Shown here one piece after another: positions 7,465 to 14,242 of a DNA stretch of 64,000 bases. The stretch lies in IMG/VR virus record IMGVR_UViG_642979322_000011. The stretch is one strand, 5' to 3'. This DNA comes from a virus (taxonomy: Duplodnaviria > Heunggongvirae > Uroviricota > Caudoviricetes). The translations under genes and the position numbers were made by a program. The notes under the pieces were generated by a model. It was not told where the DNA came from. It did no database searches and saw only the letters and a list, made by a program, of their open reading frames with translations. Each line of letters starts with the position of its first letter. Within the stretch, counting starts at the first letter, position 1.

Positions 7465-7540
7465 TGGTGTCCCCTGCAGGAATCGAACCTGCAATTAGCC
7501 CTTAGGAGGGGCTCGTTATATCCATTTAACTAAGAGGACG
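7465..7540 (-). tRNA. argW: tRNA-Arg (anticodon CCU)
   Basis: Reverse complement reads GTCCTCTTAGTTAAATGGATATAACGAGCCCCTCCTAAGGGCTAATTGCAGGTTCGATTCCTGCAGGGGACACCA; cloverleaf with CCT anticodon and encoded CCA. Confidence 0.9.
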
Positions 7541-9382: not shown

Positions 9383-9750
9383 TGGTTGTATTCCTTGAGT
9401 GCCATATCATAAACACGGCATGCCGAGAGGTGTGTTGTAGTCAACGTCGTTCGTATCCTGAAAAGTCCATGTGTTGTGACGGTAACTTCCGGGGCTTTGA
9501 GTTTCACTGCATCAACGATATGCTGATGTTTGCGGCTTTCGAATATAGAGCTGGATATAACCACACTTGCTGTTAAACCGTAACTTTCAAATGTGATTTT
9601 CATGTCATTATCCTCGCAGTTAGCCGGGCAACAAAAATAAATAATGTTGTTCCTGCGAATAACAGGATACCGCCCGTCATTAGAGAAAGGAAAAACAATA
9701 TTAATGTACGCGGGGTGTTTCTCAAAATATTCTCTCTGTGATTCGCTCAC
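9370..9750 (-). CDS. Hypothetical protein
   Basis: ORF only; odd composition, may be mis-framed. Confidence 0.3.
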   Translation of the reverse strand: MSESQREYFEKHPAYINIVFPFSNDGRYPVIRRNNIIYFCCPANCEDNDMKITFESYGLTASVVISSSIFESRKHQHIVDAVKLKAPEVTVTTHGLFRIRTTLTTTHLSACRVYDMALKEYNQCSS

Positions 9751-10163
9751 TCTGACAATTCGTTGATCAAGTCACGGTATTTATTCAGTTCTTGCAACGC
9801 CTTACATGCACCCTCCCATCGTTTCTGTTTCCGCCCGGCGCGGCGCGCTTCTTTCCGTGATTTACGTAGCAGGTCGCCTATAATGTTGTGCTGCACTGGC
9901 TGCACTGGCTGCACTGGCTGCACTGGCTGCACTGGCTGCACTGGCTGCACTGGCTGCACTGGCTGCACTGAGGCGATATTTGGTTTTTTGTCCACTTCCC
10001 TTGCAACTGCCTGCCAGATGCCATTTTTTACAGTTACTACCCCCTGGTTTTTTAACTTCCATAGAGTGTCAATAACGTCATTCAAATCAATATTGAGACC
10101 TTTAGAAATACTTTCGGCTGATGCTTTTCCTAATTTGTTCAATTCTGTGAGCACTGCGTTCAT
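9747..10163 (-). CDS. Hypothetical phage protein with PVQ tandem repeat
   Basis: ORF encodes (VQP)x9 from a 9-bp DNA tandem repeat. Confidence 0.55.
   Translation of the reverse strand: MNAVLTELNKLGKASAESISKGLNIDLNDVIDTLWKLKNQGVVTVKNGIWQAVAREVDKKPNIASVQPVQPVQPVQPVQPVQPVQPVQPVQHNIIGDLLRKSRKEARRAGRKQKRWEGACKALQELNKYRDLINELSE
9891..9969. repeat. 9-bp tandem repeat CTGCACTGG, about 8.7 copies
   Basis: Perfect head-to-tail copies visible in sequence, in frame within CDS 9747-10163. Confidence 0.9.
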
Positions 10164-10198: not shown

Positions 10199-10411
10199 TT
10201 ATACGGTTGGTGAGGTGTCAGCTTCTTCTACCAGCTTTTCCAGTTCATCCAGCTTTCGGGAAAGAATTTCACCAAACAGATGAAGTTCTGCATCTGCTGT
10301 AATCGGGATTGGAACAAATCGTATTCCACTTCTGGCAAGTTGATTTGCGATTTCCAGACACTGCCTTAATTCAACTGGTGATGCCTTTGTCAACGTCGTT
10401 TTTTCGCTCAT
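10199..10411 (-). CDS. Small phage protein, paralogue of 17411-17602
   Basis: ASPVELRQCLEIANQLARSGIRFVPIPI vs ASPVELRTSIEMAHSLAQIGVRFVPIPV; start re-set to internal ATG (MSEKTTL). Confidence 0.5.
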   Translation of the reverse strand: MSEKTTLTKASPVELRQCLEIANQLARSGIRFVPIPITADAELHLFGEILSRKLDELEKLVEEADTSPTV

Positions 10412-10997
10412 TGGTTTTCTCCAGAAATTTAACAATACCCGGAACCATCTCAATGGATGGTGTGCCGCATTGGTTACCCCATACATCAAATCCATGCGAG
10501 GTGTGGCGGGCGAACAGTTCTATCCGGGGAACATCGCCAAGAAGTTGCACAAGTTTTTCTCGAGCCATATCCGGCTTGCGGGAGTGATCAAGGCGTGGTG
10601 CAGTGAATGACTGGATTATTCCGGCGTTAATGCGTTCGGGCAGATTTCCTTTCACTGCAAAAAGGCAGTCTTCGCTGTTAGCGCGAGTGGTGCTACCCAT
10701 ACCCATGACCAGCTTGTCGGTCTGTCTTTTCCCGCATTTGTTCCAGGTTAATCCTTTCATCGTCACCAGACGAAAGCCCCACGCTTCTACAACCTTCAAT
10801 GCTTCAAGTGGTTGTGTAGGCACCCACCACATAGCCAACAGGCAATTCTCGGCTGCCAGTTCCCATACCGGGAGGCGGCAGATATCCAGAAGACTCATGA
10901 CCGGATATTTAAAACTTGCACCGCGTTGACCATCGGTTGCTTTGTCGCGGAATGTCCAGGGGGGATCTGCGTAAATGAGGGTGTATTTTTTCGTCAT
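10371..10997 (-). CDS. Orphan N6-adenine DNA methyltransferase, MT-A70 family
   Basis: IYADPPW (DPPW catalytic motif) near N-terminus; ATG start confirmed. Confidence 0.75.
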   Translation of the reverse strand: MTKKYTLIYADPPWTFRDKATDGQRGASFKYPVMSLLDICRLPVWELAAENCLLAMWWVPTQPLEALKVVEAWGFRLVTMKGLTWNKCGKRQTDKLVMGMGSTTRANSEDCLFAVKGNLPERINAGIIQSFTAPRLDHSRKPDMAREKLVQLLGDVPRIELFARHTSHGFDVWGNQCGTPSIEMVPGIVKFLEKTNERKNDVDKGITS

Positions 10998-11425
10998 AGC
11001 GCGTTTTCAAACTCATCAATGTAAAGTCCTGCTTTAATCAGTCGGCGACGGCGTTCGGCCTTTTGCACGTATTCCTCGCGACAGTTTTTTGCTGCGTGTT
11101 CACGGCTTCTGCGACTGAATGGAGGAACGGCATTGCGTGAGCGAGGTGTGTCACGACGAGGATTTGATTCGAGGGAGAAAAAGCGATCAACGATTCCGGT
11201 GTCTGTGGTGAATGGTTCTGAAGCCTTTATTTTCACAACCTTACTGCCCTTTGTCAGGCCGCGAGCTACCTTGTTGAACTCGCAAAGTGAAACACCAAAT
11301 TTCTCTGCTATTTCACTGCCAGTAACAGGACGACCACGAGACTGAATCATCCAGGTGACGCGTTCTTTTAACCCACGGAAGGCACCGGGCCTTCCAGAAC
11401 GCCTGTAGAAAGCGATCTGTTTCAA
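10994..11425 (-). CDS. Hypothetical HTH protein
   Basis: TTG start with GGAGA RBS (alternative ATG at 11350); HTH-like VTGSEIAEKFGVS. Confidence 0.45.
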   Translation of the reverse strand: MKQIAFYRRSGRPGAFRGLKERVTWMIQSRGRPVTGSEIAEKFGVSLCEFNKVARGLTKGSKVVKIKASEPFTTDTGIVDRFFSLESNPRRDTPRSRNAVPPFSRRSREHAAKNCREEYVQKAERRRRLIKAGLYIDEFENAL

Positions 11426-11439
11426 ATTTTTGTCTCCAG

Positions 11440-11462
11440 ATATGAAAACCCCGACGGGATGT
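11440..11462 (-). terminator. Rho-independent terminator
   Basis: Minus strand CCCCGAC-5nt-GTCGGGG followed by TTTT, downstream of CDS 11481-12158. Confidence 0.5.
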
Positions 11463-11790
11463 CGGGGATGGTAGGGGAAGTTACAGGCTTAACGAGAAGC
11501 CTTTTCGGGAATTTCGATCTGACAGTCTTGAAATATCCTGTAGCGTGCGGCGCATTTCTTCCGTCAGATGTTTGAAGGCGTTAAATTCAGCGACAGCCGC
11601 ATCGACGTTATAGCCCTTGCTGTGTAGTTCGTTGAGGATACGCATGGTTGGGCTTGGCATGTCGAAGAGTACAGAAACGTCCAGGTTAAGAGTTTTTCGA
11701 TCAACATAGCTCATCATGGAGTAGGGGTGGTGCTCTGAAAACCACGATAGAGGGTAGTTGATAGATAGTGTTGATTCTGGAAGCTGAAGT
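11440..11790. repeat. Copy A of a ~350-bp intra-prophage repeat
   Basis: About 90% identical to 20235-20580 by eye; covers the 3' end of an antirepressor gene plus its terminator. Confidence 0.75.
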
Positions 11791-12158
11791 TGTTCTGGGA
11801 TTTTTTGACTGAAATAGCAGTCTTCCAGTTTTTCGAACACTTCCCACGCCCGATCGGTTTCGAGCATTTTTGCGTGACGGGCTGCGCCGCGTTCTGTCCA
11901 GAGGATGAGGGAGCGAACGTTACGGGCGATTTTCACAGAGTAGTTAAAAGCTACTCTGTGCTTGAACTCACGTAAAGTTTCACCTTCAAGTTTGAAGAAG
12001 TGTTTTTCCTCAATGAAACGACCTTTGTTTTCGTGGTGATTCTGGCGAATACGAATAGCTTCTGTGCCGTAAAGGTGCGCCAAAAGTTCGGTAGTGATAA
12101 CGGGGATCTGCTTGTAAGTAATCGTGGAGAGTGTTTCAACAGAAACTTGAGTTGTCAT
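11481..12158 (-). CDS. Antirepressor-like protein (ORF6N-type N-terminal domain, shared Rha-type C-terminal domain)
   Basis: N-terminus IPVITTELLAHLYGTEAIRIRQNHHENKGRFIEEKHFFKLEGETLREFK; C-terminal ~100 aa nearly identical to 20276-20923. Confidence 0.6.
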   Translation of the reverse strand: MTTQVSVETLSTITYKQIPVITTELLAHLYGTEAIRIRQNHHENKGRFIEEKHFFKLEGETLREFKHRVAFNYSVKIARNVRSLILWTERGAARHAKMLETDRAWEVFEKLEDCYFSQKIPEQLQLPESTLSINYPLSWFSEHHPYSMMSYVDRKTLNLDVSVLFDMPSPTMRILNELHSKGYNVDAAVAEFNAFKHLTEEMRRTLQDISRLSDRNSRKGFSLSL

Positions 12159-12481
12159 TATGACGCCCTCGAGTGGTTTCTAAACTATCACCACCGTTAG
12201 GTTCGAATCATCGGGTGGTGAGACGTACAGGGTTCGAACTACCGGGAAACCAACCGGCGAGCTTTTCAGCTCCCCTATACGCCCCACCATAATTCAGATG
12301 TGCGCGTGCATACGACAATAAAAAACACGCTCGCGGCGTGTCTCTGTCGCGGTTTCTATCCGGGGTTCGAATCCCGACGGTCAACTCGACCGTGCGAAGA
12401 ATATAATCCCGGATATGTGTTGTCGTCAACAAGTGGCGTGCTATCATCGAATAGTGTTCTATCCTACTCAGTGAGGTTTAA

Positions 12482-12740
12482 CATGCGTACAACCCAACAA
12501 TTCAGCATTACATTAACCAACGAAATGGCTGACATGGTGCGCGCCCGTGTGGCTTCCGGTGCATACGCTTCAGAAAGCGAAGTTATTCGTGAAGGGCTTC
12601 GTGCACTGAATGAACGCGACAAAGCAATGGAAGCGTGGTTAATACACTCAGCCGCGCCGCCACTCGACGCTATTCGTGAGAACCTAGGCAAAGGGCACTC
12701 CATTTCACAGGTTCGCTCTGAGATTCGCGCCCGGAAGTAA
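12482..12740 (+). CDS. ParD-family (RHH, COG3609-like) antitoxin homologue
   Basis: MADMVRARVASGAYASESEVIREGLRALNERDKAMEAWL matches the ParD pattern (GEYATASEIVREAVR...); GAGG RBS; no ParE/RelE-like ORF follows. Confidence 0.65.
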
Positions 12741-12826
12741 TCTGCATGGCATATGAAGTGCCACACTAACAAACTGCTCCAGGTATGGGAATAGTGTCAC
12801 TTGCAGCACCTATTAGAGATCCGATA

Positions 12827-13066
12827 ATGAACATCATAGCAAGGTTCTTTTATTTGATAATTTTCTGCATGGCAACATCAGGATGCACTACCACTACGAA
12901 AATAAATCGCGGAGATGAAAAGGAACAGTACATCATTGCCTGTGGTGCCGCTACACCATGGGGAGTATGCTATGATAAAGCCAATGCCCTATGTAAAAAT
13001 GGATATAAAGACATTTTAAAGGAACAGGGATTTAACAGGAAAGAATTAACCATTGAGTGTAAATAA
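12827..13066 (+). CDS. Small lipoprotein (79 aa), unknown function
   Basis: Signal peptide MNIIARFFYLIIFCMATSGC with lipobox TSG-C; four more Cys; AT-rich. Confidence 0.5.
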   Translation: MNIIARFFYLIIFCMATSGCTTTTKINRGDEKEQYIIACGAATPWGVCYDKANALCKNGYKDILKEQGFNRKELTIECK

Positions 13067-13155
13067 GGCCATCATTTGCAACGTTGAAAAAATTCGCCCG
13101 TGCTACAGGGAAAAAACTCCAGATCCGCTTCGTTTAACTACGAGGATTACCACTA

Positions 13156-13461
13156 ATGGCGATGTTTACCCCCCCTCATCCTGGAGAAATTATTGCTGAT
13201 ATTCTGGAAGATCAGAATATTGGAATCAGGGAACTGGCAAGAGCGCTTGATGTCGCGCCTTCCACTGTTCAGCGACTGGTTTCAGGTAATGCGACAATAT
13301 CTCCTGAAATGGCTGTTCGTCTCGCTGCTGTCCTGGGGGGAACTCCGTCTTCATGGATTCGTCTCCAGACGGCATGGAGCCTTGAAAAAGCGGAAAGAGA
13401 AGTTGACGTATCTCATCTCTCAACAAAATACCGCCCGGCAGAAATTTCGCCTCATGCTTAA
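13156..13461 (+). CDS. HigA-family antitoxin homologue (XRE-HTH)
   Basis: HPGEIIADILEDQNIGIRELARALDVAPSTVQRLVSGNATISPEMAVRLAAVLGGTPSSWIRLQTAWSLEKAE closely matches recalled E. coli HigA; GAGGA RBS; no HigB-like ORF upstream. Confidence 0.7.
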   Translation: MAMFTPPHPGEIIADILEDQNIGIRELARALDVAPSTVQRLVSGNATISPEMAVRLAAVLGGTPSSWIRLQTAWSLEKAEREVDVSHLSTKYRPAEISPHA

Positions 13462-13503
13462 CCACCGCGCCGTCATTCTGGCGGCGTCGGAGAGTGGAGG
13501 ATA

Positions 13504-14242
13504 TCAGGTTCCGAATTCTGCGTTGTTCTCCGCGTCCAGGATTTCTTCAATCTTCCGTACTCCCCGATTATTGTATCGGAAGCTTTCTACCTGCTTATCC
13601 GAATACGGGGATTTGTCGATGAACCATTTCCCGTATTGTTCGGTTTTGAGCATGTAGGTATTGGCAATGCGACCAACCTTGTTAGCGGATATTTTGAGTT
13701 TTGCTCCAACTTCTGACGCCGAATAGTAATGTTCATTAATCATCGGTAGCGGGATTACGTTAGCGCCTACAACGGGATTAACCAGGCTGGCGGCAACGAC
13801 TTGTTTAGCTTCAGGGGCAAGGTTGGGGAGGAAGCCGAAAAGGTCTTTCATTGTATCGACGGTCATTTTCAGCGCCCGTGCTTTACGGAATTCCTCAAGG
13901 CCGTTAGTCGAATGTTTCGAGGTGATTTTTTGTTGCAGTTGCTGTTGCATTGACTCCAGTTGATCGACCAGCGAACGACGGACGGATTTAGATTCACGAG
14001 CGGCAACCCGAAGCGCTTGTTTATAGGTCATCACAATAACAACCTGATCCGCACCGCCTTTTTTCTTATCCATGGGGGTTACGAAAATTTCGTAACCCCC
14101 CCCCATCAAGTTCATCTTTGATGCGTGCAATGAAGTCGTTGTTGCGTACTTCTTTTTCACCGCACAGTCTCCGCGCTTCATTCACCATTTTCAACAGAGC
14201 CTGGCTGTCGATAGTTCCATTTTTCATTACATTATTTTTCAT
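13504..14242 (-). pseudogene. Phage protein split by a frameshift in a C9/G9 homopolymer
   Basis: N-terminal frame from ATG 14242 (MKNNVMKNGTIDSQALLKMVNEARRLCGEK...) stops shortly after the run at 14096-14104; C-terminal frame is track ORF 13504-14181. Confidence 0.5.

Follow-up and report, generated by a model that had tools for sequence, protein, structure and literature searches.

How does a prophage come to carry two antitoxin genes from toxin–antitoxin (TA) systems of type II without a toxin for either, and a lipoprotein gene between them? The question is raised by a Stx2a prophage in the window analysed here, a stretch of 64,000 nucleotides from the IMG/VR virus record IMGVR_UViG_642979322_000011. 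The three genes, parD, a lipoprotein gene and higA, lie on the plus strand between two minus-strand antirepressor genes. The three open reading frames are real and run against both flanking genes, as an earlier reading of the DNA without database searches (the sequence-only reading) had described. Many deposited Stx2a-converting phages match the region at 100% identity, and the phages PA2 and PA8 (genus Oslovirus) match it at 99.8–99.9%. A tRNA-Arg(CCT) is found at 7465–7539, and a Met/Arg/Arg tRNA trio typical of Stx phages at 30669–30920.

[quoted passage not shown] These are the same genes, and the window lipoprotein is 100% identical in both phages. The paper states that DefenseFinder does not flag the orphan antitoxins, and its authors speculate on a counter-defence role. 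The passages considered leave the origin of the orphans open and contain nothing on toxin remnants, the slot or the lipoprotein, which are the features that we read here.

Two intact antitoxin genes without toxin partners

The parD gene (12483–12740, plus strand) encodes an RHH antitoxin of 85 aa. It matches the Pfam model PF03693 ParD_antitoxin (1e-7, 32.7 bits against a cut-off of 21), TIGR02606 (53.4 bits, cut-off 46.2) and PHROG 6494, and its nearest solved structures in the PDB are ParD antitoxins. The sequence-only reading had placed this gene at 12482–12740. The end is correct, but the start codon is the ATG at 12483, and reading from 12482 gives stop codons. The higA gene (13156–13461, plus strand) encodes an HTH antitoxin of 101 aa, which reaches 87.2 bits against TIGR02607 (cut-off 47.7). 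Its nearest structures are HigA proteins, with 4.7e-27 for PDB 2ICP and values of 1e-19 to 5e-27 for the HigA structures of E. coli and Proteus. The earlier assignment of the two small proteins as a ParD-like RHH protein and a HigA-like HTH protein is therefore confirmed by the profile searches, as both pass the NCBIfam cut-offs for antitoxin families.

Neither gene has its usual partner in the window, which agrees with the sequence-only reading. With the ParE, HigB and RelE proteins of relatives as queries, tblastn yields no toxin gene in the whole 64 kb, all E-values being above 0.1. Immediately downstream of parD, where relatives (L003, L026 and L049) carry the cognate parE, the window has no such gene. 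The cognate higB, which lies upstream of higA and overlaps its start, is likewise missing from the window and intact in phage GER2 and in 22 genomes. In Stx2_EH2011, ParD is followed by a 99-aa ParE (PF05016, 4.5e-10). In GER2, HigB (Pfam HigB-like_toxin, 1e-21) overlaps the start of a HigA that is one residue from the window protein, and N5T is the single exchange between the window HigA and that of intact higBA loci. Related prophages thus hold intact cognate toxin genes beside the same antitoxin genes and in the same slot. Because of these intact partners, which the sequence-only reading had itself named as evidence against its view, the interpretation that it had attached to the trio is only partly supported.

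Remnants of toxin–antitoxin genes at the junctions

The missing toxins have left traces. Directly behind parD, at 12746–12769 on the plus strand, lies the 5' remnant of a parE gene. It consists of five codons, ATGGCATATGAAGT (M-A-Y-E-V), followed by two unrelated codons and a stop. An identical start is found in locus L049, whose 103-aa ParE begins MAYEVIITPEAEQ. This ParE accompanies the closest toxin-paired ParD allele, which has 94% aa identity to the window protein, and it begins MAYEV like the remnant. The homology of parDE loci to the window stops at 12759.

From 12769 to 13073 (plus strand) follows an imported AT-rich segment of 305 bp with 84.6% nucleotide identity to the P22-like contigs L006 and L007. 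It runs into the 3' remnant of an HTH-antitoxin gene (13069–13137, plus strand) that stems from a relE/parE-HTH cassette and comprises the last 22 codons and the stop. By tblastn, the stretch 13069–13134 is identical in 22 of 22 aa to the C-terminus of the HTH antitoxin of E. coli G1/2 (E 4.7e-10), and nucleotide identity to intact HTH antitoxin genes is 95.8%. The third remnant, at 13134–13156 on the plus strand, is the 3' end of higB with its last 6–7 codons (N-Y-E-D-Y-H-stop), as seen in the alignment with the higBA locus of GER2 and with KY176. Homology to GER2 higBA restarts at 13134, and the higB remnant supplies the ribosome-binding site GAGG of higA. The HTH-antitoxin and higB remnants are fused at the microhomology TTAACT, a junction that is common to the window, KY176 and L016. 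Chance similarity of the remnants is unlikely, given the match of 22 of 22 aa and 14 matching nucleotides exactly where parE starts. All three remnants had been overlooked in the sequence-only reading.

A cargo slot for toxin–antitoxin pairs

The cassette occupies a slot with well-defined borders. Conservation in an alignment of five loci ends after 12431, which sets the left boundary at 12431/12432, directly upstream of the −35 box in the promoter-like site for isrK. The right boundary is formed by a GC-rich hairpin-like sequence at 13461–13486 that loci with different cargo have in common; it is found in L005 and L016, where homology ends at 13486. Relatives use the same slot for parD-parE (EH2011), higB-higA (GER2) and relE-HTH (G1/2 and KY176). 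In G1/2 the slot is filled by a RelE/ParE toxin and an HTH antitoxin; in KY176 the RelE/ParE-HTH pair is followed by an orphan higA. The exact 32-mer of the left junction (12400–12431) is found in 20 IMG/VR contigs. Eleven of the 20 continue into an intact relE-HTH pair, one into an intact parDE pair and eight into the trio.

A prevalence survey covered 5,426 complete E. coli genomes. The window higA allele is present in 68 genomes, 22 of which also have higB. The parD type in all its alleles occurs in about 362 genomes; 308 of these represent an 80–90% allele, and parE accompanies every 80–90% match listed. The window parD allele occurs in 54 genomes, with parE in none of the copies examined. 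The lipoprotein segment, to which the question of a toxin partner does not apply, is found in 42 genomes. In an assembly collection, the exact ParD protein is present in about 2,190 index blocks, and in each of the eight contexts listed the lipoprotein ORF comes next and then the higA region, with higA frameshifted in two of the eight. Altogether the trio occurs in thousands of assemblies.

We conclude that the cassette is an ordinary recombination scar. With high probability it is a mosaic, built by recombination in a slot whose usual cargo is one complete TA pair of type II. Successive illegitimate recombinations at short microhomologies joined four pieces: parD with the first five codons of parE; the 305-bp AT-rich segment, whose lipoprotein gene otherwise lies in the immunity-I region of P22-like phages; an HTH antitoxin gene reduced to its last 22 codons; and intact higA, preceded by the final 6–7 codons of higB. 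The lipoprotein gene thereby overwrote the toxin genes of TA cassettes and left two antitoxin genes without partners. No unique order of the recombination events can be reconstructed. In type II systems, loss of the antitoxin while the toxin remains is lethal, and loss of the toxin is free. Since the former is lethal, orphan antitoxins would be the expected viable residue of such events and would not need a function of their own. To the question raised by the orphans of phi346 and phi349, why Stx phages carry two antitoxins without toxins, the scars give the answer that the toxin genes were overwritten, a point on which the passages of PMC12502783 considered here are silent.

The cassette resembles the type II parDE and higBA cassettes of lambdoid and Stx prophages in that the antitoxins pass the family models and in slot, orientation and promoter position. 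It differs from them by the absence of both toxin genes, of which five parE codons and 6–7 higB codons are left, and is not a functioning TA system. The slot itself offers a convenient natural system for the study of TA turnover, as parDE, higBA and relE-HTH take one another's place in it from one lambdoid or Stx prophage to the next. At L049, a retained parDE pair precedes a scar of 46 bp that consists of the 3' end of higB and 10 codons from the start of higA, from which we conclude that antitoxins, too, are lost once the toxin is gone. The overall pattern agrees with a single slot whose cargo is overwritten again and again. Counting against a purely passive scar, the trio has been carried as a unit into a second backbone and is present in thousands of assemblies. 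This second backbone (L016, O22:H8), one of the eight contexts, has the cassette in a lambdoid nin region, and the shared module extends from 11806 to 13486 and comprises the N-terminus of the antirepressor, C4, isrK and the cargo. Such spread could reflect selection on the trio rather than hitch-hiking with successful Stx phages.

Allele history of parD and higA

Between the window parD and the toxin-paired allele of EH2011 there are 36 mismatches, affecting 19 codons synonymously and 12 non-synonymously (dN/dS 0.16), within flanks that are identical from 11401 to 12480. All 12 substitutions relative to this common prophage allele fall in the C-terminal 37 residues. The C-terminal part of ParD is the toxin-binding region in solved ParD–ParE complexes. 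With every substitution located there, it is uncertain whether the window ParD could cross-neutralise the common ParE. Decay of parD after it had been orphaned was considered and rejected in view of the 19 synonymous codons, the identical flanks and the existence of a paired allele with 94% identity. Judging from these allele comparisons, the window parD is an old allele that was brought in by recombination.

For higA, the trio of L010 is informative. Its higA is nucleotide-identical to the paired higA alleles of intact higBA loci, and the loss of higB must therefore be recent. The orphan higA of KY176 has the same junction as the window and differs from the window gene by 12 synonymous codons and one non-synonymous codon. 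These differences are all located within 13254–13449, and none lies in the 170 nt around the junction. We rejected purifying selection on the orphan higA as an explanation of this pattern: the clustering of the differences indicates a recombination tract, and the L010 gene is identical to paired alleles. In two assemblies (L011 and L017), single-base deletions in homopolymer runs put higA out of frame, which may be decay or sequencing error. Both ParD and HigA of the window would probably still fold and bind DNA.

Predicted promoters and transcription of the cassette

A consensus scan finds two promoter-like sites back to back at the left edge of the slot. TTGTCG-16-TATCAT on the plus strand (12420–12447) is placed to drive parD, and TTGACG-18-TATATT on the minus strand (12429 to 12400) is placed to drive isrK; the −35 regions of these consensus matches overlap at 12420–12429. 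No terminator-like site was found on the plus strand between parD, the lipoprotein gene and higA. The three genes would probably form one transcript from the predicted parD promoter, with a low transcript level in the lysogen that would be set by ParD autorepression. The Shine–Dalgarno sequence of the lipoprotein gene is weak, which had escaped the sequence-only reading.

The lipoprotein

The lipoprotein ORF (12827–13066, plus strand) encodes 79 aa. The sequence-only reading had described it as an AT-rich gene between the antitoxin genes with a lipobox and four further cysteines, and every one of these features is found. GC content is 37% for this ORF, 52% for parD, 49% for higA and 49% for the window. 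The N-terminus has the organization of a bacterial lipoprotein, MNIIAR-FFYLIIFCMATSG-C20, with a positively charged n-region, a hydrophobic core and a lipobox, MNIIARFFYLIIFCMATSG directly followed by C20 (...MATSG-C20), and it conforms to a rule of the PROSITE PS51257 type. Cys20 is invariant in 54 homologues, where it is mostly preceded by L-[AS]-G, and together with it C39, C48, C56 and C78 are invariant in the 54 family members. Compared with the P22-like copy, dN/dS is 0.19, from which we conclude that the ORF is a real gene. The family comprises 129 clusters at E<1e-3 in a library of 50% identity. No model in Pfam, NCBIfam or PADLOC matches the protein, and in PHROGs it is matched by function-unknown families only. 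Structure prediction with AF2 gives a confident model of a β-β-α-β-β domain (pLDDT 86.7), for which the search for structural neighbours found no informative one.

In the P22-like contigs L006 and L007, the homologue (82% aa identity) is flanked by the ejection-protein gene gp16 on one side and the tailspike gene on the other, which places it in the immunity-I region. More distant members with 70%, 59% and 53% aa identity occupy the same gp16–tailspike slot in L008, L009 and L040. Two members in this slot directly follow mnt with overlapping stop and start codons, and 26 bp separate another member (51% aa) from the CI-like S24 repressor gene before it. Among deposited phage genomes the lipoprotein is found in Stx phages only, and the P22-like homologues occur only in metagenome and SRA assemblies. 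The recurrence beside repressors that maintain lysogeny suggests an envelope factor expressed by the lysogen.

According to the Asp+2 rule, the residue at position +2 governs the sorting of lipoproteins to the outer membrane, and Thr at this position predicts outer-membrane sorting. The protein would be exported, lipidated at Cys20 and sent to the outer membrane, where it would carry two disulfides. Its genomic context makes a factor of the cell envelope, expressed from the prophage, the most plausible role. The family recurs in the immunity regions of temperate phages, its window member is spread over thousands of STEC assemblies, and it is the only part of the cassette with real open biology.

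Possible functions of the trio

Four readings that assign a function to the trio or to its parts deserve discussion. The sequence-only reading had considered a novel TA arrangement. In a tripartite system of this kind, the lipoprotein would be the toxic or effector part under the control of ParD and/or HigA; the only hint of this is that the three genes are neighbours in the same orientation. Type II antitoxins work in the cytoplasm, however, and the lipoprotein with its signal peptide and lipobox is predicted to be exported. P22-like phages have close homologues of it (82%, 70% and 59% aa identity) but neither ParD nor HigA, the lipoprotein segment is bordered on both sides by scars within former toxin and antitoxin genes, and ParD and HigA each have a conventional partner in relatives. 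A novel TA system is thus effectively excluded. The overlap of the two −35 regions could hint at a different use, in which the orphan ParD, with its own promoter overlapping that of isrK, C4 and ant, would have been co-opted as a Mnt-like repressor of the antirepressor operon. It is also in line with this idea that P22-like phages place the homologous lipoprotein after mnt, an RHH repressor gene divergent from ant. Yet ParD has no sequence similarity to the Mnt-type proteins that precede the lipoprotein in those phages, and neither an inverted nor a direct repeat operator was found in 12380–12500. Given that relE-HTH, higBA and parDE all occupy the same position, the promoter overlap belongs to the slot rather than to ParD, and a Mnt-like role appears highly improbable. 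A rather unlikely reading, to which the antitoxin decoys of the sequence-only reading belong, is that the orphans are kept by selection as anti-TA factors (anti-addiction or counter-defence) against ParE and HigB of host defences or of competing, slot-sharing prophages; it is compatible with the scar origin but is not needed to account for the orphans. Most copies have both genes undamaged, the trio travels as one unit between the two backbones, and cognate parDE and higBA circulate in the same prophage population and in the same slot. A phage protein of this kind, T4 Dmd, acts against RnlA/LsoA. Precedent further comes from AdfA, an orphan antitoxin-like counter-defence protein that a phage uses against DarTG1 (PMC11825919), and the authors of PMC12502783 raise the same idea for the orphans themselves. 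AdfA and Dmd are, like ParD and HigA here, phage-borne antitoxin homologues without a toxin, but they belong to lytic phages and their neutralising activity is demonstrated, whereas the window orphans are explained by a visible toxin-gene deletion. The evidence from the alleles speaks against selection: the L010 higA leaves no time depth for it, the differences to the KY176 orphan are clustered at 13254–13449 by recombination, two assemblies have higA frameshifts (decay or sequencing error), and 12 of 12 ParD substitutions affect the C-terminal 37 residues. Few genomes also carry a paired copy (for parD at most 10 of about 362, for higA 1 of 68). PADLOC matches HigA only weakly, at the level of the HTH, and matches neither ParD nor the lipoprotein; DefenseFinder is negative in PMC12502783.

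For the lipoprotein we favour an action on the cell envelope of the lysogen as most likely, with superinfection exclusion as the leading guess. In this tentative reading, the protein would block an outer-membrane receptor or DNA entry as Cor and Llp do, and ParD would merely supply the promoter. In its favour, the protein is a small outer-membrane-type lipoprotein with conserved disulfide cysteines and under purifying selection (dN/dS 0.19), and family members reside in immunity regions that lysogens express, either in the gp16–tailspike slot or after mnt or a CI-like repressor gene. In P22, the gp16–tailspike slot contains sieA. The genomic context supports the Cor/Llp-like exclusion lipoprotein proposed in the sequence-only reading; neither sequence nor fold is similar to Cor, Llp, Bor or another described family. 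The protein resembles Cor of phi80, N15 and HK022, Llp of T5, Ltp of TP-J34 and Bor of lambda as a small prophage lipoprotein of the immunity or lysogeny region that is probably expressed in the lysogen; it differs in having no detectable sequence or structural kinship with them. Stx podophages use BamA as receptor, and P22-like phages use O-antigen and Omp proteins. With nearly identical proteins in both groups, a model in which the lipoprotein blocks the phage's own receptor fails for the two groups together. Serum resistance, stress tolerance and other envelope roles are equally open. Clearly unlikely is the more far-reaching view that the whole trio is a selected unit, in which ParD and HigA would protect prophage and host against ParE and HigB of rival lambdoid prophages or of host TA defences that compete for the slot, and the lipoprotein would found an exclusion family shared by Stx and P22-like phages. 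This new family would be expressed in lysogens for superinfection exclusion, have the co-transcribed lipoprotein as its first member and occupy the immunity-I (gp16–tailspike) slot in P22-like phages.

The flanking antirepressor genes

The left edge of the cargo slot is set by an antirepressor module that lies outside the trio. It contains an isrK-type Hfq-binding RNA as leader of the antirepressor operon (12320–12393, minus strand; Rfam RF01394, 53 bits, gathering score 50) and a C4-type antisense RNA of the P1/P7 immI type (12211–12294, minus strand; RF01695, 70.1 bits, gathering score 45, full-length). Both RNAs score above the Rfam gathering scores and are followed on the same strand by the antirepressor ORF, which encodes 225 aa of the ORF6N/KilA-N type (11481–12158, minus strand; Pfam ORF6N 1e-19, PHROG 1760 anti-repressor 1.6e-122) and is the target of the IsrK/C4 leader. 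The isrK-orf45-anrP region of Gifsy-1 has the same arrangement (PMC4825925). Like this region and the immI region of P1 (c4-icd-ant), the window has isrK and C4 RNAs before a minus-strand antirepressor, here directly to the left of the cassette; the difference is that the module is a neighbour of the trio and not part of it.

The two RNA genes (12211–12393) and the antirepressor identity of the flanking genes had been overlooked in the sequence-only reading. The GGTTCGAA motifs at 12200–12390 were considered as tRNA remnants and rejected, as ARAGORN reports no tRNA there and the motifs belong to the C4 and isrK RNAs. On the right flank, an antirepressor-like gene (13504–14242, minus strand; PHROG 1726 anti-repressor, 1.2e-81) is split in the window by an additional C at 14096 in a homopolymer run. 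In L012 and L010 the gene is an intact ORF of 245 aa; the extra C is present in the window and likewise in PA2 and LC727849.

Possible decay in the cargo slot

At the cargo site that carries parD, the lipoprotein gene and the orphan higA in the window, related assemblies differ in their higA sequence. In the prophage loci L011 (CP027675) and L017 (CP027363), higA is frameshifted by single-base deletions in C7 and G6 homopolymer runs, corresponding to window positions 13169 and 13335, while the assemblies are otherwise identical. Either the orphan antitoxin gene is truly decaying in these two loci, or the homopolymer runs were misread in sequencing. The SRA assembly SRR11014948 (L049, 1205-1253) contains an intact parDE pair and, after it, a 46-bp scar composed of the 3' end of higB and codons 1-10 of higA. 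Here the slot has decayed in yet another way, with higA lost as well.

At the right flank of the slot, the antirepressor-like gene on the minus strand (13504-14242) is split into ORFs of 225 aa and 58 aa, because a homopolymer run at position 14096 is longer by a single C than in the unbroken 245-aa ORF of the related prophages L012 and L010. The extra base is not peculiar to the window assembly, because phage PA2 and LC727849 have the same base.

Gene neighborhood of the lipoprotein family

In the P22-like phages L008 (5750-6240) and L009 (3454-3923), the mnt stop codon is overlapped by the gene of the lipoprotein homologue, and in another temperate phage (L041, 4217-5243) a gene of the family lies 26 bp after a CI-like S24 repressor gene. 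Judged from this overlap and spacing, co-transcription with repressors that maintain lysogeny appears to be a consistent feature of the family. A further P22-like contig (L006, 4538-4990) carries a second, unrelated lipoprotein gene upstream of the homologue, which encodes 121-150 aa including …ALTGC…. The final ~50 bp of this second gene belong to the segment that was copied into the window, where they fall in 12769-12826.

Antirepressor control RNAs and variable genes

Two RNA genes, C4 antisense RNA (RF01695, 70 bits) and isrK (RF01394, 53 bits), precede the ORF6N-type antirepressor gene (11481-12158) in tandem on the minus strand, both within 12211-12393. With this arrangement the Stx phage has a control module of the P1 immI and Gifsy-1 IsrK-AnrP type. 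Although the GGTTCGAA motifs resemble tRNA T-arms, they are part of the C4 and isrK RNAs.

Within the 138-aa ORF at 9747-10163 on the minus strand, (PVQ)n is repeated in perfect tandem. In the related prophages L010-L017, called lengths of the homologous gene range from 123 to 138 aa, a spread that suggests variable repeat number. In PA2 (L002, 238-1400), a two-gene insertion, both genes being annotated 'mobile element protein', splits the adenine methyltransferase gene at a position inside window 10371-10997. Unlike in PA2, this gene is unbroken in the window (208 aa).
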